Shown here: positions 1 through 11,265 of the stretch, piece after piece | Position numbering within the stretch: position 1 is the first letter of the stretch | Layout: every line of letters starts with the position of its first letter | Source of the DNA: a virus | Taxonomy: Duplodnaviria; Heunggongvirae; Uroviricota; Caudoviricetes | Strand: one strand, 5' to 3' | DNA: 11,265 nucleotides | Virus record (IMG/VR): IMGVR_UViG_2541047828_000001 | The notes under the pieces: generated by a model | The model's database searches: none | The model's input: only the letters and a program-made list of their open reading frames with translations | What the model was told of the DNA's origin: nothing | Program-made: the position numbers and the translations under genes

Positions 1-170
1 ATGATTTTCTGGTGCGTACCGGGTTGAGAAGCGGTGTAAGTGAACTGCAGTTGCCATGTTTTACGGCAGTGAGAGCAGAGATAGCGCTGATGTCCGGCGG
101 TGCTTTTGCCGTTACGCACCACCCCGTCAGTAGCTGAACAGGAGGGACAGCTGATAGAAACAGAAGCCAC
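1..170 (-). CDS. insA: IS1 InsA protein, N-terminal 56 codons (3' end cut by window edge)
   Basis: Minus-strand translation from the GTG at 168-170 gives [57 protein letters not shown], matching IS1 InsA from memory. It is absent from the ORF track only because it is under 60 codons in the window. Confidence 0.85.
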
Positions 171-225
171 TGGAGCACCTCAAAAACACCATCATACACT
201 AAATCAGTAAGTTGGCAGCATCACC
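1..225 (-). mobile_element. IS1 insertion sequence, partial (terminal ~225 bp; the rest lies beyond the window start)
   Basis: The reverse complement of 187-225 reads GGTGATGCTGCCAACTTACTGATTTAGTGTATGATGGTG, which I recognise as the IS1 terminal inverted repeat and left arm. The insA reading frame follows. The IS1 terminus is at 225. Confidence 0.85.
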
Positions 226-342
226 CACGCCCTGATGCGCACGGTGAAATGCACCAAAGCCTAAATGAATAATTCTTGGGGCCAGGTTATTACGATCATA
301 AACAGGGAGTGTCGCTTTTGCTGATAACAAATTATTTCCCAT
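226..342 (-). pseudogene. ydfI: 5' fragment (39 codons) of a mannitol-dehydrogenase-family oxidoreductase gene, interrupted by IS1
   Basis: Minus-strand ATG at 340-342, preceded by AAGGAA, translates as [39 protein letters not shown] and then runs straight into the IS1 terminus at 225. [12 protein letters not shown] is the dinucleotide-binding signature of the mannitol/mannonate dehydrogenase family. The gene symbol is inferred from K-12 synteny (ydfI next to ydfJ). Confidence 0.6.
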
Positions 343-390
343 AACAATTCCTTAAATTTAAATATGGCAAGCTATATGTTTTGTTATATG

Positions 391-424
391 AATAAAAATC
401 CCCTCTCCGGTAAGAGAAGGGATT
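391..424 (-). terminator. Intrinsic terminator downstream of ydfJ
   Basis: Inverted repeat AATCCCCTCTCC / GAGAAGGGATT (about a 10-bp stem with one G-U pair) immediately 3' of the ydfJ stop (431-433). On the minus strand it is followed by TTTTTATT. Confidence 0.55.
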
Positions 425-430
425 GAGGGT

Positions 431-1714
431 TTACAGACTTCTGGAAGGTTGCGCAGCTCTTACAACACGCGGTTGATCTTCCGCAGCGTCTTCCAGCGCA
501 CTTAAATCACGGTCTTTCACCTCTGGCATTTTCAGCGCAGAGATTAAACCAATTACTGAATATGCCATGATCATAATGGCGATCGGATACCAGGATTCCG
601 TCATGGTGCAGAAAATACCCGCCAGGATAGGACCAAAACCGGAAGCGATAAGACCACCAATTTCTTTAGAAATAGCCATCCGGGTAAAGCGGTTTTTACA
701 GCCGAACATTTCTGCCATGGTAATGTTTTCCAGAGCAAATAATCCCAGCACCGCACAGTTATGAATCACAATCAGTGCAACCATAATGGTGCTCGGGGCA
801 TAGCTTTTATCTACAATGATAGAAAGCATTGGCCATGCCAGCACAATCGCGGAGGTATTCATAATAATATACGGGATCCGGCGACCAATTTTATCGGATA
901 ACCAACCAAGGAACGGAATGGTCATAAAGCCGAGAATCGAACTAATCATCAATGCATCTGTTGGAATTGCTTTGTTAAACAATAACGTCTGCACTAAATA
1001 GCCTGCAAGGAAAGTCTGAATTAACCCGGAGTTACCCGCCTGACCAAAACGCAGCCCTGTTGCCAGCCAGAAGGATTTGCTCTGGAACATGCTACCAGCA
1101 GGTGCAGGTTTTGCTGTGGGTTGGTTGCTGTCATTAACCTTCTCAAAGACCGGGCTTTCTTTCAGATTCATACGTAACCAGATAGCAAAGACCATCACGA
1201 CAACGCTCGCCAGGAACGGTATACGCCATCCCCACGCCAGCAGTTCCTCTTTACTGAGAATGAAGAACATAAAGGCCCAGATTGCCGTTGCGCTCAAGGT
1301 TCCGCAGTTAGTTCCCATAGCTACAAATGAGGAGATAATTCCGCGCTTACCTTTTGGTGCATATTCCGCCAGCATCGTACCGGCACCGGAAATTTCCGCA
1401 CCTGCACCCAACCCCTGAATAATACGCAGCGTCACCAGCAAGATGGGGGCAAAAACACCAATCTGTGCATAGGTCGGTAACACACCAATTAAGGTGGTAC
1501 AGATCCCCATCATGGTGATGGTAATAAAGAGCACTTTTTTACGCCCTATTCTGTCGCCCATTTTGCCGAAAATAAATGCTCCGACAATACGCGCCACATA
1601 ACCTGCACCGTAGGTTCCCATTGCCAAAATTAACGCCATTGCCGTTGATGATTCAGGAAAAAATATTTCATGAAACACCAACGCTGCGCCGAGCGAATAT
1701 AACTGGAAATCCAT
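431..1714 (-). CDS. ydfJ: MFS transporter (metabolite:H+ symporter-like), 427 codons, lacking the normal N-terminal ~30 residues
   Basis: A 427-aa ORF with multiple hydrophobic segments and MFS-like motifs (GxLxDRxGRKK, GxxAEYAPxxKRG). The product starts MDFQLYSLGAALVFHEIFFP, i.e. inside the conserved (E/D)W(Y/F)DF..LYG motif that normally lies ~25-40 residues into MHS-family transporters. An in-frame TGA lies two codons upstream and there is no Shine-Dalgarno sequence. Confidence 0.8.
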   Translation of the reverse strand: MDFQLYSLGAALVFHEIFFPESSTAMALILAMGTYGAGYVARIVGAFIFGKMGDRIGRKKVLFITITMMGICTTLIGVLPTYAQIGVFAPILLVTLRIIQGLGAGAEISGAGTMLAEYAPKGKRGIISSFVAMGTNCGTLSATAIWAFMFFILSKEELLAWGWRIPFLASVVVMVFAIWLRMNLKESPVFEKVNDSNQPTAKPAPAGSMFQSKSFWLATGLRFGQAGNSGLIQTFLAGYLVQTLLFNKAIPTDALMISSILGFMTIPFLGWLSDKIGRRIPYIIMNTSAIVLAWPMLSIIVDKSYAPSTIMVALIVIHNCAVLGLFALENITMAEMFGCKNRFTRMAISKEIGGLIASGFGPILAGIFCTMTESWYPIAIMIMAYSVIGLISALKMPEVKDRDLSALEDAAEDQPRVVRAAQPSRSL

Positions 1715-2317
1715 AATTCACAGGTGTTTTTTCCCATCCTGTGGTTTCCTTGGCGTTTTCTAGGTTTTTTCAGATAGTTGCATTTTTTAAAAAGCATCCT
1801 AAGTTCGATCTCAGTGTCTATCTGGGGCCTATTTCTGTCCCATATATGCCCCAAAAAAACTCCCCAACAGATAAGTAGTTTTTTCATGGATTTATGCGTA
1901 AAATCAAGAACGGCTGGAAATCATTCAATACTCACACTATCGAAAAATTTACCAGCCAACCGCAGCACGTTCTTGCATAAGGCGTGTCTGCGGTTTTTCA
2001 ACTATTCAGATACATCACTCCCATCACATTCATTCCTCCGCATCAAAGGCATATAGGCTATATCACCTTGATATTTTTCTTTTTCAGATAAAAACTGTTA
2101 TCTATGTATACTTTTAAACCCAATCCGTGTAGAGTCTCTGCATAAGATAGTTTGCAGTTGCCGCTTCAGCTTGCGCCATAAACCGCCTGATTTTTGCTGC
2201 CACCTGTTAGCATTCCTGTATACCTGAAACGACAATGTTTATCTACGAACTTTAAGAACACCCAAGATAAAAATTGTCAACTATATCATATATAACACAT
2301 TACTAATTCGAGGCTAT

Positions 2318-2431
2318 ATGAACAGCATACTGATAATCACATCTCTCCTTATCATATTCAGCATTTTTAGTCATGCCCTAATAAAATTAGGGATTGGCAT
2401 ATCCAATAACCCAGACAAAACCGATGTATAA
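2318..2431 (+). CDS. Hypothetical 37-aa hydrophobic small protein ([37 protein letters not shown])
   Basis: ATG at 2318 with GAGG 4 nt upstream (2310-2313). Residues 3-28 are uniformly hydrophobic and the tail is polar. It ends 68 bp before the ydfK start on the same strand. Not in the ORF track because it is under 60 codons. Coding status is unproven. Confidence 0.3.
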
Positions 2432-2499
2432 GTCAACATATCCTGAATCAGACATACAATATCGCAATGAAAATCAATAATATTTTAAGGAATATCTTC

Positions 2500-2733
2500 A
2501 TGAAATCAAAAGACACCCTAAAGTGGTTCCCTGCGCAGCTTCCTGAAGTAAGAATTATCCTAGGGGATGCTGTAGTGGAAGTAGCAAAACAGGGAAGACC
2601 TATCAATACCAGAACATTGCTTGATTACATTGAAGGAAACATAAAGAAAAAATCATGGCTGGATAACAAAGAATTATTACAAACAGCGATATCAGTTCTT
2701 AAAGACAACCAAAATTTAAATGGCAAAATGTAA
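2500..2733 (+). CDS. ydfK: Small prophage protein of the YdfK/YnaE family (77 aa)
   Basis: ATG at 2500 is preceded by AAGGAA (2487-2492) with a 7-nt spacer. The ORF-track start at 2467 has no SD. The sequence MKSKDTLKWFPAQLPEVRIILGDAVVEVAKQGRPINTRTLLDYIEGNIKK is recognised from memory as the Qin/Rac YdfK/YnaE protein, and it sits between ydfJ and pin as in K-12. Confidence 0.8.
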   Translation: MKSKDTLKWFPAQLPEVRIILGDAVVEVAKQGRPINTRTLLDYIEGNIKKKSWLDNKELLQTAISVLKDNQNLNGKM

Positions 2734-3049
2734 TATAATAAACTTACTTTTTTATCATTTTTCCACTTTAACAACATTTTGCTCCACTTTTCCACGACCA
2801 AACAACTTGAAATCTGGTTAAAATAACACGCAACACTATTCTTCTTCCTTGAGTCCGCCCGGAACTCGAAAAACAAACCGAGTTAAAGCCATTTTTCACA
2901 AAATCGATTTTGGGTCTCACCAAAATTACGGGGTTGCATACGCATTCGTTTATTTTCGAACGTGTACATACAAATATGCACAAAAATAATCATAATTATT
3001 TTCTGAGATGCATTATGATATGAACACCAATTTCGTATAGAGTCTCACT

Positions 3050-3640
3050 ATGTCTCGAATTTTTGCTTACTGTCGGATATCAACGCTGGATCAGACCACC
3101 GAAAATCAACGCCGGGAAATCGAAAGTGCAGGTTTTAAAATCAAACCTCAGCAAATAATCGAAGAACACATTAGCGGCTCAGCAGCAACCAGTGAGCGTC
3201 CTGGTTTTAACCGGTTGCTTGCTCGCCTGAAATGTGGTGATCAATTGATTGTGACAAAACTGGATCGCCTTGGTTGTAATGCAATGGATATCAGGAAAAC
3301 AGTGGAACAACTGACCGAAACAGGTATCAGAGTGCATTGCTTAGCATTGGGTGGCATTGACCTGACCAGTCCAACAGGAAAAATGATGATGCAAGTAATT
3401 TCAGCAGTCGCTGAATTTGAACGAGACCTTTTACTTGAACGCACTCATTCCGGGATAGTAAGAGCCCGCGGCGCAGGGAAACGTTTTGGTCGACCACCTG
3501 TGTTAAATGAAGAACAGAAACAGGTGGTATTCGAACGAATTAAGTCAGGTGTAAGTATAAGTGCCATTGCCCGGGAATTCAAAACCTCGCGGCAAACCAT
3601 TTTAAGAGCCAAAGCAAAACTTCAGACACCTGACATATAA
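3050..3640 (+). CDS. pinQ: Pin-type serine recombinase / DNA invertase (196 aa)
   Basis: N-terminal YCRISTLDQ catalytic-serine motif (Ser11) with resolvase/invertase-fold motifs, and a C-terminal helix-turn-helix ([18 protein letters not shown]). Length and sequence match the Pin invertases of Rac and Qin from memory. The Q suffix is inferred from the ydfJ/ydfK context. Confidence 0.9.
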
Positions 3641-3737
3641 AAAATAATCTCGGTGTGAGATGCTTTACGTCTTCCAAGCCCCCTTCCTTGCCGTAAATGG
3701 AAAGATACATCTAATTATAGAATTTATATGTTTTACC

Positions 3738-3911
3738 CTACGGCAGTGCTGGCCATTCAATATCCGGTACTACTGATGTATTAACACGGTTCAGCAACAC
3801 CCGATACTTTTTCCAGACTTCTAGCAACGAAGTTTCTTCCTCCGTTGCGATTTCCAGCTCAACAACAGTCTGAACGTACCAGGAACAGCCTCCTTCAGGG
3901 CTTGAAGGATA
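3738..3911 (-). pseudogene. tfa: 3' relic of tail fibre assembly gene tfa (last ~45 codons, no start codon)
   Basis: The minus-strand frame continuing straight after the stf stop translates as [57 protein letters not shown]. From LEIAT onward it is near-identical to the C-terminus of lambda Tfa as I recall it ([39 protein letters not shown]). There is no Met or GTG start in this frame. The stop is at 3738-3740. Confidence 0.7.
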
Positions 3912-6900
3912 TCAATGTTCGCTTCCTGTTAACTGCCCGACAAGTGCAACCAGTTCGCTTACCTGATTTTCCAGAGTGCTGATCCGGGTGCCTGCTGTTG
4001 CCAGATTTTGACGTAGCGTTGTGTTTTCCTCTTCCAGCGCGGTAACGCGATCATCTGTTTCACGGGCGACCTGAACAAGTAAGCCCGTCACGGCGGCGTA
4101 GTCAACATTCAGATAACGTGTTTCTTCACGTAATTCATTGCCGTCAACCGTTGGTCCCTGCAACTCTTCACCGTAATGAGTAAACGATCCCACAGCTTCT
4201 GGTATCGCCTCCATTACTTCCTGTGCAATAACGCCAGCATAAGGCATCCCGTTTTCCCTGAGCGTGTAGGTGTATCCGTTCATTTTACGGATTGCTTTCG
4301 TCGCGTCGCTGATAACGAGAATATCGTCTTTAAGGTCGCGGTCTGATGACTGATTCAGCGTTGTGCAATTAATAGCGCCATTTACATCAAACAACTGGCC
4401 TGCTGACGTTTTTTGCGCATAAAACAGATACGCAGCAGACGTTCCAACCTCAAAAAAGTTTTGTCGAGTACTGGAACCCCACACCCTGACAGAAAACGGT
4501 AGTTCTGCATTACCTGAGTTCTGTAAAACAAAACGATTGCCAGTCCCTGATTGTTTTGTAAGGGTTAAATCAACAGTTGAGTTAACCTCATTCCTGTTGA
4601 TAGTGAGCGCCTGCGCTGTAGCCCCGTTAACAGCACCTGTTTTGAGTTGAACCGCGCCGTCATTACCATTTAACAGTATCTCAGCTCCGCTAAAGAAATT
4701 TTTTAGCGACAGCATCTTACTTACGCCGACTGATGAACCCAACGCCCACGCGAGAGAATTACCGGTGCTATCAAACCCACGTACAAAGCAATCCATTTTG
4801 CTATAGTCTGACGTGCTTCCAAGGACATCAATCCGCCCTCCGCCAGATTTTAACGGGTTAGATGTGGTTAATGACCTGACAGCAAGATCGGTGGATGAAT
4901 TTAGATCGTCTACTGTTAGTAATTTCTTCCATTCCTGCGTCGTTCCGTTTTCAACTGTTCTTCCCCAAAAACCGGAATTGCGGCCTCCGAACTGCACAGC
5001 ATAATTTTTACTAAATTGAACATGAATGCCGCCAAGAACCATAGAACCTGCCGGGCCGTTTGTACTGCCTGCGATTGGTCTAAATTTGTCGACGTTATCA
5101 GTATGCTGAGAGTTCCAGTCATGACCTGTTAATGTTGCGATTCCTGAGTTAGCTGTAATTAACCCAGACGCTTTAAGATTTTGCACATCAATTCTGTCGT
5201 TTGCGAAATTATATGCAATTGCGTTACTAACGCTTCCGGCATCATCATAATCGCGTTTCTGAATAAACCAGTCGCCAGCATTAGCAATGAGAGTATAAGT
5301 AGGCGTGTTAGCCGGGCGATCTGTTTCATTAAATCTTATTGCTGGGTTAGCGCTCCTTATTTGTAAAGGTTTTTCAACCGTTGATTTCAGTATCGCACTA
5401 TCTACAATTAAATTACCTTCTGAGTTAAGGTTTAGATATTTTGAAGCACCAGTTGAACCATCGTATGTAAACCTTATTGTTAATTGACCTGGCTCATTTG
5501 ATAAAGTCTCAACATACATATCAGCACCAAGACGCACAGTGCTGTCAGTTGCTAACAGTCTTGTATGGAGAATACCACTAGATGTGTATGTATTGGTCGA
5601 ATCACTATATCTATCAAGAAATAGACTGTTAAGTTGAGGGCTATTACTCCTGCCTAATCCAAGATTCGTTCTGGCACCATCAATAGTTGCCGCACCAGTA
5701 CCACCATGAGAAACATCAAGCGGTATCCATTTTTTTTGTGTGTCGCTGTAACACCCCCATGTTGATCCGGTTAAACCCAGGCGCATGGATTTATCATGGT
5801 TATATAACCATGTTTCGCTACTCCATTGGTCAAGACGGTCCACTTCATTTTTGCGAGCGTGGCGTGTCCATTGCGGGCCTATTGTCGGATTCCAGCGATA
5901 AGTATAAAGCGAGCGCGTAGCCCATCCCTGAAATACACCTGTATACGCTGGTGTTCCATCTACCTGACTAATAAACCCCGTAAGACTGCTTTCACCGGAT
6001 GCAATCGATGGAAAGCCTTTTGCATTACTCATAATGCGCATAAATCCGATATACCCTGATGGGTTGCCGGAAATATCAGGACAATCACGCGGTGCTGAGC
6101 CAAGACCGATATTATCGCCAACAATTAATTGCGCCTGGTTGCGATAATTAAGTGCGTCCGCCGCAGATTTCGCCGCGTTTGTTTCACTGGATTTAGCATT
6201 AGTTTCGCTGGCTTTAGCGTTGGTTTCGCTGCTCTTTGCTGCTGCCTCGCTATTTTTCGCGTTGGTTTCTGATTTTTTGGCTGCTGTCGCGGAGTTTGCC
6301 GATGCAGTTTGTGAGTCTGCTGCCGCCTGTGCGCTGTTATCCGCATTCGTCTCAGACGTTTTTGCGGCCTTCGCGGAATTTCCTGCCGCCGTTGCCGAGG
6401 AAGCTGCACTACTGGCACTTGATGATGCGTTCGTTTCTGATGATTTCGCTGCCTCTTTTGAGGCCGCCGCATCCCGGGCTGAGGTGGCAGCTTCTGACGC
6501 TTTCGTGGTCGCGGTGGATGCAGAAGTAGCTGCAGATTTTTGTGACGCTGCAGCATTCGTTTCTGACGTTTTCGCCGCACCGGCACTGGTGGCTGCCGCG
6601 CTTTTTGAGGACTCTGCAGCGGCAGCACTTTTTAATGCTTCAGTGGCCTTTGTTGATGCCGTTCCTGCGCTGGAAGATGCTGACTGAGCAGATGATGCAG
6701 CCTGTCCGGCTGACGTGCTGGCGGCACGTGCTGAGCCTGCGGCATCGGTTGCATGGGTTGCCGCCTCACAGGCAGATGTGCCGGCATCGCTGGCTGACTT
6801 CTTTGCGGCAGCCGTGTTCTGTGCCACTGCGGACGCGTTATGCGCCACCTCTTCCACCATCAGTTCAAAGCGGCGCAGTGCCTCCGGACGGGCATCATCC

Positions 6901-7184
6901 TCCGTCATGGCACCAAGAAAATCATTCAGCGTACCCGGTTGTGAGTCTTCATACACGGTGATGGTCCCGGCATGCGATGGCGGGAAGCCTTCCACCAACA
7001 GAATAACGCTGTACTGACCGTACTCAACGTCCATGCTGTAACGCCCGGCTTCATCCGGATTTTCTGAGGCCACCGTGTTCACCACCACCGTGGTGCTGTT
7101 ACGTTTTGCTTTCAGCTGGATTGTGCAGTTCTGTACCGGTTTACCTGCACCGTCTTTCAGTACACCTGAAATCTTTACTGCCAT
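3912..7184 (-). CDS. stf: Side tail fibre protein (~1090 aa) with a C-terminal intramolecular chaperone domain
   Basis: The N-terminus MAVKISGVLKDGAGKPVQNCTIQLKAKRNSTTVVVN matches lambda Stf from memory. The likely start is the ATG at 7182-7184 with GGGGTG upstream; the ORF-track start is a GTG two codons earlier. The stop is at 3912-3914. It follows lom in the lambda order J-lom-stf. Confidence 0.9.
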   Translation of the reverse strand: MAVKISGVLKDGAGKPVQNCTIQLKAKRNSTTVVVNTVASENPDEAGRYSMDVEYGQYSVILLVEGFPPSHAGTITVYEDSQPGTLNDFLGAMTEDDARPEALRRFELMVEEVAHNASAVAQNTAAAKKSASDAGTSACEAATHATDAAGSARAASTSAGQAASSAQSASSSAGTASTKATEALKSAAAAESSKSAAATSAGAAKTSETNAAASQKSAATSASTATTKASEAATSARDAAASKEAAKSSETNASSSASSAASSATAAGNSAKAAKTSETNADNSAQAAADSQTASANSATAAKKSETNAKNSEAAAKSSETNAKASETNAKSSETNAAKSAADALNYRNQAQLIVGDNIGLGSAPRDCPDISGNPSGYIGFMRIMSNAKGFPSIASGESSLTGFISQVDGTPAYTGVFQGWATRSLYTYRWNPTIGPQWTRHARKNEVDRLDQWSSETWLYNHDKSMRLGLTGSTWGCYSDTQKKWIPLDVSHGGTGAATIDGARTNLGLGRSNSPQLNSLFLDRYSDSTNTYTSSGILHTRLLATDSTVRLGADMYVETLSNEPGQLTIRFTYDGSTGASKYLNLNSEGNLIVDSAILKSTVEKPLQIRSANPAIRFNETDRPANTPTYTLIANAGDWFIQKRDYDDAGSVSNAIAYNFANDRIDVQNLKASGLITANSGIATLTGHDWNSQHTDNVDKFRPIAGSTNGPAGSMVLGGIHVQFSKNYAVQFGGRNSGFWGRTVENGTTQEWKKLLTVDDLNSSTDLAVRSLTTSNPLKSGGGRIDVLGSTSDYSKMDCFVRGFDSTGNSLAWALGSSVGVSKMLSLKNFFSGAEILLNGNDGAVQLKTGAVNGATAQALTINRNEVNSTVDLTLTKQSGTGNRFVLQNSGNAELPFSVRVWGSSTRQNFFEVGTSAAYLFYAQKTSAGQLFDVNGAINCTTLNQSSDRDLKDDILVISDATKAIRKMNGYTYTLRENGMPYAGVIAQEVMEAIPEAVGSFTHYGEELQGPTVDGNELREETRYLNVDYAAVTGLLVQVARETDDRVTALEEENTTLRQNLATAGTRISTLENQVSELVALVGQLTGSEH
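3915..4346 (-). other. Peptidase S74 / C-terminal intramolecular chaperone domain of stf (last ~144 codons)
   Basis: The C-terminal segment SDRDLKDDILVISDATKAIRKMNGYTYTLRENGMPYAGVIAQEVMEAIPEAVG fits the S74 chaperone signature (S-D-x-R-x-K ... Y ... G-x-IAQEV...P). It is followed by a heptad-like tail (RVTALEEENTTLRQNLATAGTRISTLENQVSELVALVGQL). Confidence 0.75.
6156..6839. repeat. Intragenic imperfect tandem repeats encoding the Ala/Ser/Thr-rich (K)SSETNA repeat region of Stf
   Basis: Protein residues ~118-345 are low-complexity with recurring KSSETNA, KTSETNA and SAATSA units. In the DNA this appears as reiterated gtttc/tttcgctg/gcggc motifs. This is a known feature of lambda-type Stf. Confidence 0.6.
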
Positions 7185-7190
7185 ATTCAC

Positions 7191-7222
7191 CCCACAAAAA
7201 AGCCCGCCTGAACCGGCGGGCT
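7191..7222 (-). terminator. Intrinsic terminator between lom and stf
   Basis: Minus strand reads AGCCCGCC-GGTTCA-GGCGGGCT followed by TTTTTTGTGGGG. The perfect 8-bp GC-rich stem is at plus 7201-7222 and the T-run overlaps the stf ribosome-binding site. Confidence 0.6.
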
Positions 7223-7248
7223 GTCATAACACTGTGTTACCTGGCTAA

Positions 7249-7848
7249 TCAGAACTTATAACCGACACCCACGATGAAACCGTCAGTGCGCCAGTCGCCA
7301 CTGCCGGAGCCTTCATAAGCAATATCAATGGCCACGGATTCGGTCGGGTTAAACTGCACGCCAGTCCCCCACGCCAGAGACGTGTTGCTGCGGCGACCGT
7401 CATCACTTCCGGTCAGCACTTCGTGCGTTTTCCCCTTGTTGTCAGTTACGCGGAGATAATCCCCGGAGAAAGTAGAAATACGGCTGTAAGCCACACCCGC
7501 CATCGCATACGCGCTGAACCATTCATTCACGCGCACAGACGGCCCCGCCATCACGCTGAACCAGCGGTTACGCACGGAATCTTCATGCCAGCGGGTATCG
7601 CTGTAATGAGTCAGCTGGCGATTCTTGTCTTCTGCATAGCTGAATGACGTCACCATCCCCAGCGTGTCCGTAAACTCATAACGGTATTTCACGTTAATCC
7701 CGTTAAGATCATCGCTGCCGGGAACGTTCGTCGAGGCATGAAGATACCCCGCGCTCAGCGAGGACTGATGTTCAGACGCCCATGCAGGCGCACCGGATAC
7801 GACCAGACAGATGGCTGCGGACAAAATGGCTGCACAAACTTTACGCAT
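7249..7848 (-). CDS. lom: Lom outer-membrane protein (Ail/Lom/PagC family), 199 aa
   Basis: MRKVCAAILSAAICLVVSGAPAWASEHQSSLSAGYLHASTN... has a signal peptide with AWA|SE cleavage-like site, is near-identical to lambda Lom from memory, and ends in the beta-barrel terminal YKF. GAGAGG lies upstream of the ATG at 7846-7848. Confidence 0.9.
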   Translation of the reverse strand: MRKVCAAILSAAICLVVSGAPAWASEHQSSLSAGYLHASTNVPGSDDLNGINVKYRYEFTDTLGMVTSFSYAEDKNRQLTHYSDTRWHEDSVRNRWFSVMAGPSVRVNEWFSAYAMAGVAYSRISTFSGDYLRVTDNKGKTHEVLTGSDDGRRSNTSLAWGTGVQFNPTESVAIDIAYEGSGSGDWRTDGFIVGVGYKF

Positions 7849-7869
7849 AATTACCTCTCGCTTTTCTGC

Positions 7870-7899
7870 AATAAAAAAGGCGTCATTCCTGACGCCCTT
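7870..7899 (-). terminator. Intrinsic terminator between J and lom
   Basis: Minus strand reads GGCGTCA-GGAA-TGACGCC followed by TTTTTTATT, immediately after the J stop at 7919-7921. Confidence 0.6.
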
Positions 7900-7918
7900 T
7901 ATTGGGGTTATAACAATT

Positions 7919-10900
7919 TCAACGAATACTGATACCGGAAGCAGCCTTTTTGGTCACAATCACCGTACAGTCGGTGATATTGCCTGCCCCCTGATTGCCT
8001 TTCTGGAAAATCTTAAACTCCAGAGTGACGCTTCCCCTGCCACTCGGCATATCAATAACCGCACTGTAACTACCGGGAATGGCCCCTTTAGTTTCTCTGG
8101 ATGCGATTAATACGCCGTTTTTGCGAACTTCAAAACCATACCCCGTGTACCTTGTACCTCCCGGGTTATCACCACTTCCCGGATCGTCATACGCTATACC
8201 GTTAAAGATAATGGGCGGAATAATGATTTGACGGTCAAAGTTATGATCATCGCTGATGGTGACTGTAACCGTCCCGTCTGGTGTTTCCGTATTACCCCAC
8301 GTACCAGCCTGTTTCGGGAATGATTTGGATACTGTTTTAACAAAATCACCTCTGACCTGATTCGCCTCCAGCATGCCCTTAATCGTACAGTTTTCATTTA
8401 TCGTGACGTTGTTGAGCGTCCCGGAGTTCGCATTCACACTGCCACTGATATCCGCATTTTTAGCGGTCAGCTTTCCGTCCGGTGTCAGGGAAAATACCGG
8501 TGGATTTCCACCACTGGTAATGGTGGGGGCCGTCAGACGTTTGAGGAACACGTCGTTCATGAATATCTGGTTGCCCTGCGCCACAAACATCGGCGTTTCA
8601 TTCCCGTTTGCCGGGTCAATAAACGCGATACGGTTAGCAGCAACCAGAAACTGGCTCAGTTTGCCTTCCTCTGTATCCTCCATGCTGAGGCCAAGCCCCG
8701 CGACATAATGTTTGCCGTCTTTGGTCTGCTCAATTTTGACGCCCCACATGGCATTCCATTTATCGTTGGCGTCTTTCCACTCTTTCGAAAACTCCTCCAG
8801 TCTGCTGGCGTTATCCTCCGTCAGGTCGACTTTTTCCAGCAGCTCCTTGCCGAGATGGGATTCGGTTATCTGGCCTTTGAAAAAATCCAGGTAACCTTCC
8901 GCATCATCGCTCGCCCGACCGACGGCCTCCACGAATGTCGATTTGCCAACGGTGTTCACACTGCGGATATAAAAGTAATAATCATGGCCCGGTTTGATAT
9001 TGATACTGGCGGCTATCCAGTACAGCGCCGTACCAAGATAGCGGGCTGTGGTTTCAACCTGCCTGATATCGGTAATCCGCTTTTCCGAGAACCAGAACTC
9101 AAACTGTACTGTCGGGTCATAAACGGCAAGATGCGGCGTGGCGGTTATCTGAAAATAGCCCGGCGTCAGCTCAATCCTCGACGGTGTTGCCGGTGCGGCA
9201 ATCCGGAACGATACCGACGCCGGATCGCCCTGCTGTCCCCACGCATTTACCGCCCGGACTGTCAGCGTGTAGTTCCCCAGCGCCAGTTGCGTGAAGCGGT
9301 ATGTGGTTTCCGTCGTCCGGGCCGTGCTGACCAGCCGCTCACTGCCGTCATCCGCTGCCACGGTCAGGCGAAGCATAAAGCTCACCCCCTTCACCACCTT
9401 CGGCGTGTCCCAGCGCGCCAGCACCTGATATTCCCCGCTGTCTGCGGTGACTTCGGCAGTCAGGTGCTGCACCGCTGGCGGCGTGACACCATTCACCGTG
9501 CCGCTCTGGTCGCCGTCAAAGTGCGCCCCGTTATCCACGATGGCCTCTTTTTCCGGTACATGCTGCACGGCGGTGATGGCATACGTGCCGTCATCGTTCT
9601 CACGGATACTCACGCAGCGGAACAGACGCTGGCGCAGCGTCGGCAGCTTCAGCCCCCATACGCTGTATCCGGCAACGCCGTCAGGAACACGGCTCACTTT
9701 TACCTTCACGCCGTCGGTGACGGACTGGACCTCCACGCTGACCGGATTGCCACTTCCGTCAACCAGGCTTATCAGCGTGGTACCGGAGGATGGCAGCGTG
9801 ATTTCACGGTCGAGCGTCAGCGTCCGGGTCTGGCTGTTCACCGCCAGCACGCGCCCGCCGGTGCTGATCCCCGCATAGTCATCATCGCAGATTTCAATAA
9901 CATCACCCGGCACATGGCGAAGCCCTTCGGCACCCACGCTGAAATCCACGGTCTGCGTCTCCAGCAGCTCCGTTTTAATCAGCCACAGCCCGGCGCGGTG
10001 TGCCTGCCCCCGGCAGGTACAGCCAAAGGCATCCATCTTCGTAACATTACGACCGTAACGGGCAATGGCCTGCGTATCTTCAACAAGCTCTGTCGCCGTC
10101 TCCCAGCCGTTGTTCGGGTCAATCCAGTTCACCTCAACGGCATTATGGCGGTCCTTCAGGGCGCTGAAGCTGTAGCGGAACGGCGCGCCATCATCCGGCA
10201 TCACCACATTACTGCGGTTATAGGTCCACACCTTATCCGACGGTCGGTCCTGCACGAACGTCAGCGTCTGCCCGTTCCATACCGGCATACAGCGCATCGC
10301 CGAGCAGAAATCACTGAGCACATCCCACGCCTTGCGCTGTGTGGTCAGGTACGCATTACAGGTGATGCGCGGCTCCGTGCCGCCAAAGCCGTCCGGCACT
10401 GACTGGTCGCAGTACTGGCCGATGACATACAGCGCCCATTTATCCACATCCGCCGCACCAAGACGTTTCCCCATGCCGTAGCGCGGATGGGTCAGCATAT
10501 CCCACAGACACCAGGCCATGTTGTTGCTGTATGCCGGTTTAAACGTTCCGTCCCAGATACCGCTGTATTGCCGCGTCTGCGGGTTATAATTCGACGGCAC
10601 CTGCAGAATACGCCCGCGCAGATGATAATTACGGCTCACCTGCTGGCTGCCGAACTGCTCCGAGTCCACCTGCACGCCGACCAGTGCCGTGTTCGGGTAG
10701 CACTGTTTCACATCGATGATTTCGGTGTATGACGACCAGAGCGTTTTGTTCTGCAGCTGGTCTGTGGTGCTGTCCGGCGTCATCCTGCGCATCCGGATAT
10801 TAAACGGGCGCGGCGGCAGGTTATCCACCACCACCGAGGCCAGATACTGCGACGTGGTTTTGCCCTTAATGGTGATGTCTTTTTCCGTCACCCAGCCACC

Positions 10901-11265
10901 ATTACGCTGTATCTGAACCAGCAGGCGGACTTCCGACGGATTCCGATCACCCTTTGAGGTGGTTTCCACCAGTGCCTGCACGCCGAAAGTAAAACGCAGA
11001 CGGTCAATGTTTGCCGACGTGATGGTCCGGGTGATCGGCGTGTCATATTTCACTTCCGTACCCAGCACCGTCTCGGAGCCGGAGGATTCAAATCCCTCCG
11101 GCGGTGTCTGCTCCTGCTCACCTGCCCGGAACACCACCGTGACGCCGGAGATATTGGTATTCCCCTCACTGTCCAGCACCGGCGTACTGTTCAGCAGCAC
11201 GCTTTTTAATCCATCCACCGGACCTTCAACCGGCCCTTCGCTGATGGCATCGATCACACTCAGCA
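7919..11265 (-). CDS. J: Tail tip / host-specificity protein J (central tail fibre), 5'-partial; ~20 N-terminal codons lie beyond the window end
   Basis: A 1112-codon frame that is essentially collinear with lambda J from memory ([28 protein letters not shown]...). The apparent start at 11257 is an internal GTG; the frame stays open to the window edge (..LSVIDAIS). The last ~150 residues diverge from lambda J. Confidence 0.9.

Follow-up and report, generated by a model that had tools for sequence, protein, structure and literature searches.

Which outer-membrane receptor would be used by a lambdoid prophage whose J protein follows that of phage lambda closely and then departs from it at the receptor-binding end? 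The question is raised by a virus record, IMGVR_UViG_2541047828_000001, of which we analyzed one stretch of 11,265 nucleotides (hereafter, the window; all positions refer to it). A sequence-only reading of this DNA had proposed that J is nearly identical to lambda J for about 950 residues, that its C-terminal 150 or so residues diverge, and that a different outer-membrane receptor is therefore to be expected.

The window contains the part of a lambdoid prophage in which the late genes end; the prophage occupies the Qin site, within ydfJ. Positions 226-11265 were 100.0% identical to the chromosome of E. coli MS 85-1 and 99.9-100.0% identical to several other strains. Two features mark the end of the window that lies away from J.

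1-225, reverse strand: IS1 end, encoding the InsA N-terminus (Pfam Zn_ribbon_InsA, E 1.2e-20)
431-1714, minus strand: ydfJ transporter gene, 5'-truncated

The first 225 positions matched MS 85-1 at 61 of 225 bases, and MS 85-1 has chromosomal ydfI-side sequence there; the source genome thus has an IS1 insertion beside the ydfJ remnant. Because of this IS1 end, a search with the whole window gives matches in every E. coli genome and in many plasmids. The MS 85-1 prophage in ydfJ encodes integrase, excisionase, regulators, lysis, terminase, portal, and capsid proteins and a full tail set, and it is apparently complete. Its J is annotated as gpJ (WP_021518718.1, 3414 nt), and the tail genes upstream of J were seen at this locus in the order tape measure, M, L, K, I. 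In the early region of the MS 85-1 prophage, outside the window, one gene (L011 15928-16950) is annotated 'Kiwa anti-phage protein KwaB-like domain-containing protein' and is accompanied by hokD and dicB, which suggests that it is defence cargo.

J and its parts were delimited as follows.

7919..11265, minus strand: J (tail tip / central tail fibre), an open frame with its stop codon at 7919-7921
8393..11265, minus strand: lambda-like J body, comprising hub domains, two FNIII/Ig domains, helical shaft, and beta-prism fibre, assigned by identity to lambda
8360..8440, minus strand: mosaic junction relative to lambda, from a 30-nt identity profile, lying in and just after a conserved segment common to all receptor-domain types
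7922..8392, minus strand: J receptor-binding end of the phage 434 type, residues 981-1137, assigned by identity, Pfam, and structure matches
7922..7951, minus strand: conserved C-terminal motif of J, a KK-x-x-x-G-I-S/T end found in all aligned types

The window contains 1115 codons of the J frame without interruption and lacks the first 23, which fall past its end. The Pfam domain series (FNIII-A_GpJ, Phage-tail_3, Ig_J, Ig_J_second, Phage_Tail_Tip, and Ig_GpJ_C, 6/6 above curated cut-offs) identifies the product as a lambda-like tip attachment protein J, as does the position of the gene, with lom and stf after J in the window. The protein matched lambda J of PDB 8iyk end to end (residues 26-1131, E-value 0).

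We compared J by alignment with its counterparts in lambda (NC_001416), phage 434 (OL657226), and mEp460 (JQ182728). Over residues 24-973, the first 950 codons in the window, 925 of 950 residues (97.4%) were identical to lambda J, with a dN/dS of 0.09 for this lambda-like body. In 50-residue windows, identity to lambda was 0.90-1.00 up to column ~950, 0.78 at columns 951-1000, and then 0.31-0.52 with gaps. From NCTIKG (residue 981, positions 8390-8392) to the end, 59 of 148 aligned residues (40%) matched lambda, and there were three indel sites. A drop of this size, from 97% to 40%, greatly exceeds what chance would produce. In the part where lambda diverges, the identity of J from the window is 88-98% with 434 J and 98% with mEp460 J.

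The break was also seen in the DNA. Identity to lambda in 30-nt steps was 1.00 at 8452-8482, 0.80 at 8392-8422, and at most 0.50 from 8362 downward; overall it fell from 0.9-1.0 to ~0.5 between positions 8440 and 8360, placing the break at ~8390-8440. Identity to mEp460 remained 0.93-1.00 across the junction. The segment just upstream of the receptor-binding domain is 73-100% identical among all types, and the receptor module was probably gained by homologous recombination in this segment, which is common to all J types. The sequence-only reading was accurate on these points: the stretch of near-identity and the divergent C-terminus are as it described, its coordinates of 7919-8390 bracket the divergent domain almost exactly, and the motifs that it quoted exist (NVTINENC corresponds to residues 975-982). 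J also keeps the related KKxAxGISxx terminus that it pointed out, the lambda counterpart being KKQALGISVV.

To which type the divergent end belongs was determined by aligning the C-terminal ~250 residues from eleven J proteins, one being the A8 gpJ chain of PDB 9wca. The sequences fell into four receptor-domain types.

Domain type 1: lambda
Domain type 2: 434, mEp460, and J from the window
Domain type 3: A8, Stx2a_WGPS8, 4A7, and EH1910
Domain type 4: PhiR55, PPompW, and phage 204576

Comparison with lambda J and the J tips of other lambdoid phages, the check that had been proposed with the sequence-only reading, thus places the domain with 434 and mEp460 and not with lambda. The last 157 residues of J were 94% identical to 434 J without gaps, 98% identical to mEp460 J, and 40% identical to lambda J; identity to the A8/WGPS8 type was 46-47% and to the PhiR55/PPompW type 43-44%. 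Both identity and indel pattern agree with the 434 (h434) domain. They differ from those of the lambda-type LamB-binding domain (lambda residues ~981-1132), relative to which three indels occur, all in variable segments. The A8 gpJ receptor-binding end was itself 98% identical to J of the O157:H7 prophage Stx2a_WGPS8, which points to the latter, on sequence, as the natural type behind the A8 chimera tip.

Pfam PF12421 (Ig_GpJ_C) covered residues 976-1111 of the window ORF with 89 bits against a cut-off of 26, and the domain matched two solved structures over its full length, A8 gpJ (9wca, E 2.6e-64) and lambda gpJ (8xcj, E 1.7e-54). As these matches to solved J tips span the whole domain, they fix its predicted fold. 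AlphaFold2, run on the last 209 residues as a single sequence, gave a model with a mean pLDDT of 45, too poor to place the variable segments. The segments below come from the four-type alignment.

8273..8314, minus strand: hypervariable segment 1, residues 1007-1020, with an indel relative to lambda
8132..8203, minus strand: hypervariable segment 2, residues 1044-1067, with a 6-residue insertion relative to lambda
8066..8113, minus strand: hypervariable segment 3, residues 1074-1089
7973..8017, minus strand: hypervariable segment 4, residues 1106-1120, shorter than that of lambda

The four hypervariable segments separate conserved strands, and indels occur in three of the four. Lambda gpJ is built from hub domains, a pair of FNIII domains, a helical shaft, and a beta-prism fibre, and is tipped by an Ig-like receptor-binding domain, from which four distal loops reach into LamB (PMC11101478). 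We infer that the four hypervariable segments are the corresponding receptor-contacting loops.

Phage 434 uses OmpC as its receptor, and lambda given the 434 gene in place of its own J is known to bind OmpC instead of LamB (PMC3509688; PMC11101478). Given this published switch and the 94% identity to the 434 domain, OmpC is the most likely receptor of J from the window. Our main reading, to which we assign a probability of about 0.85, is that this J is a mosaic of a lambda-type body up to residue ~975 and a 434-type tip that would recognize OmpC in place of LamB. The different receptor anticipated by the sequence-only reading is thus supported, with 94-98% identity to the 434 and mEp460 tips as the evidence. 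The assignment to OmpC is carried over from phage 434. Between the two domains, 10 of 157 residues differ, and the preference among OmpC variants could differ accordingly. For mEp460, the closest relative, we found no published receptor in the papers listed for that phage. A search for IdasGreatGrand returned no paper, searches on ECOR13 and h434 gave nothing relevant, and the supplement of the gpJ chimera preprint gave no sequences for the 1A2 variant.

In lambda, binding to LamB pushes the three receptor-binding domains apart, and a twist travels up the fibre and opens the tail tube (PMC11101478). For the prophage in the window, by analogy with published lambda h434 hybrids and the lambda J-LamB complex, the variable loops of the trimeric Ig-like tip domain would enter trimeric OmpC, and not LamB, at its extracellular face. 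Binding to OmpC would then set off lambda's own fibre rearrangement and tail-tube opening through the lambda-like upstream part of J. Since J is 97% lambda-like upstream of residue ~975, the same trigger machinery is expected, and only the sensor would differ.

Three other readings of the divergent tip were weighed against a 434-type, OmpC-binding domain. One is that the tip still binds LamB and has the same receptor as that of lambda. It shares the Pfam domain family and the fold of the lambda receptor-binding domain, which agrees with this idea; however, the two are only 40% identical and have indels in the variable segments, and the nearly identical 434 domain is the one reported to move lambda from LamB to OmpC (PMC3509688; PMC11101478). 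We consider continued use of LamB very improbable. Even less credence is due to a J that is the decaying remnant of a defective prophage and no longer functions in adsorption. The Qin site of E. coli K-12 is occupied by a defective prophage, and the MS 85-1 annotation has a frameshift in the adjacent pinQ and a truncated tail-fibre-assembly gene, all of which would fit decay. J itself does not: its frame is intact over the 1115 codons, its dN/dS is 0.05-0.09 throughout, and the MS 85-1 prophage has complete head, tail, lysis, and integration genes.

Substitution patterns within the 434 type bear on the third alternative, a 434-type fold in which the ten substitutions shift specificity, so that only certain OmpC variants are bound or the receptor is a related porin, such as OmpF or one encoded by a prophage. 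Relative to 434, the receptor domain had a dS of 0.35, a dN of 0.03, and a dN/dS of 0.08, and the upstream part of J had a dN/dS of 0.05-0.09. With these values, the domain is old and conserved within the 434 type; as judged from the codons, it is under purifying selection and functional, without decay. This speaks for conservation and not for diversifying change, and so against a shift in specificity. Six of the ten substitutions fall in the hypervariable segments, which make up 44% of the domain; we tested for a concentration of the 434 differences in these segments and rejected it, as this is no convincing enrichment. The ten differences themselves, six of them in hypervariable segments, nevertheless leave room for altered specificity, and engineered gpJ variants have been reported to tell MG1655 OmpC from EDL933 OmpC (bioRxiv 10.1101/2022.09.30.509847). 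Sub-variants also exist in nature, since the 434-type DNA of E. coli genomes fell into identity bands of 90-95% (1348 records), 95-99% (716 records), and at least 99% (49 records). Taken together, we regard shifted specificity as improbable. It is somewhat less doubtful, and still speculative, that the ten substitutions (including Q1008, A1009, D1055, I1108, Q1110, and G1115 in the variable segments) tune this allele to particular OmpC variants, in which case the sub-variants may reflect an allele-matching arms race with OmpC. The reading of J as a lambda-type body with a 434-type, OmpC-directed tip is retained.

The difference from lambda is not confined to J. The block unlike lambda extends past the J stop codon through a terminator and most of lom, and DNA similarity to lambda returns at ~7340. 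Three features follow J.

7879..7896, minus strand: GC-rich hairpin followed by a T-run, between J and lom, found by scan
7249..7848, minus strand: lom, an Ail/Lom outer-membrane protein (Pfam Ail_Lom, E 2e-122)
3912..7190, minus strand: stf, side tail fibre of 1092 residues (Pfam phage_tail_N and Peptidase_S74)

The hairpin was reported by the scan on the plus strand; read on the minus strand, TTTTTTATTGC comes next. It is a probable intrinsic terminator; the mEp460 and 434 records both have a rho-independent terminator annotated at the corresponding position. Lom had 47.5% identity with its lambda counterpart, as against 93% with that of 434 and 99% with that of mEp460. We asked whether the lom allele is tied to the type of receptor domain and rejected this, as the same 434-like lom follows two other tip types (WGPS8, PhiR55, and PPompW).

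The side tail fibre also departs from lambda. Only across residues 3-286 (284 aligned) did Stf match lambda Stf, at 86% identity, and its distal part had no significant match to the orf-401 part of lambda Stf. A long repeat region rich in alanine and serine is present, and at the end stands a Peptidase_S74 domain, an intramolecular self-cleaving chaperone, with which Stf should need no separate assembly protein. The sequence-only reading had described the stf tip as swapped and both adsorption structures as unlike those of lambda, and this agrees with an Stf that is lambda-like only at its N-terminus. Beside stf lie a truncated remnant of a tail-fibre-assembly gene (~3737-3862) and a gene for a Pin-type invertase (3050-3640), the latter an intact ORF in the window and annotated as frameshifted in MS 85-1. 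Invertase and assembly-gene remnant look like what is left of an invertible fibre-tip switch.

We determined how common the tip is with the 472-nt receptor-domain segment. At a threshold of at least 80% identity, it was present in 2112 of 5426 complete E. coli genomes (~39%), often in several copies. At an identity of at least 90%, it was found in 74 phage records, among them 434, mEp460, cdtI, and many Stx1a-, Stx2a-, and Stx2c-converting phages. The J tip of the window is therefore the classical, already described 434 host-range (h434) module, which is common, annotated in RefSeq, and already known. The divergence emphasized by the sequence-only reading is real and relevant to the receptor; it is not new, the classical 434 type having been missed. 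The locus is a textbook modular exchange of a receptor-binding domain, and the same module gave lambda h434 hybrids their OmpC host range. For annotation, particles of this prophage should be predicted to need OmpC and not LamB. The ~39% frequency of the 434-type tip also bears on the choice of J variants for engineered lambda-based delivery particles.

Among the named J proteins, that of lambda (NP_040600.1; structures 8iyk, 8xcj, and 8xck) has the same domain architecture, the 97% identity over residues 24-973, and the common KKxxxGIS terminus. Its receptor domain is homologous over the full length yet only 40% identical, and lambda binds LamB. A8 gpJ (PDB 9wca/9wcb), a chimera reported to bind OmpC (bioRxiv 10.1101/2022.09.30.509847), has a homologous domain that was the best PDB match, but at 46-47% identity it represents a separate domain type.

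The closest relatives are mEp460 and 434. J of mEp460 (AFM76055.1) is 98% identical in the receptor domain, with three differences (Q1008K, D1055N, and I1108V), and the two loci share a 99% identical Lom and the same start of stf; mEp460 is a free phage isolate from Mexico, whereas the window belongs to a prophage at the Qin site. J of phage 434 (UMO75286.1), the source of the 'h434' host range of lambda h434 hybrids, has the same length of 1137 aa and the same indel pattern, and is 94% identical in the last 157 residues and 92-100% identical upstream. Within the last 200 residues, J from the window and 434 J differ at 13 positions, and 10 of these are in the receptor-binding domain. The full J gene matched phage 434 and the hybrid 'Lambda h434 imm21' end to end at ~95.5% nucleotide identity (95.6% for 'Lambda h434 imm21'). 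The likeness continues downstream of J, with the same terminator and a lom allele 93% identical, and ends in the stf region, where identity between 434 and the window is 0.3-0.6 from ~6830.
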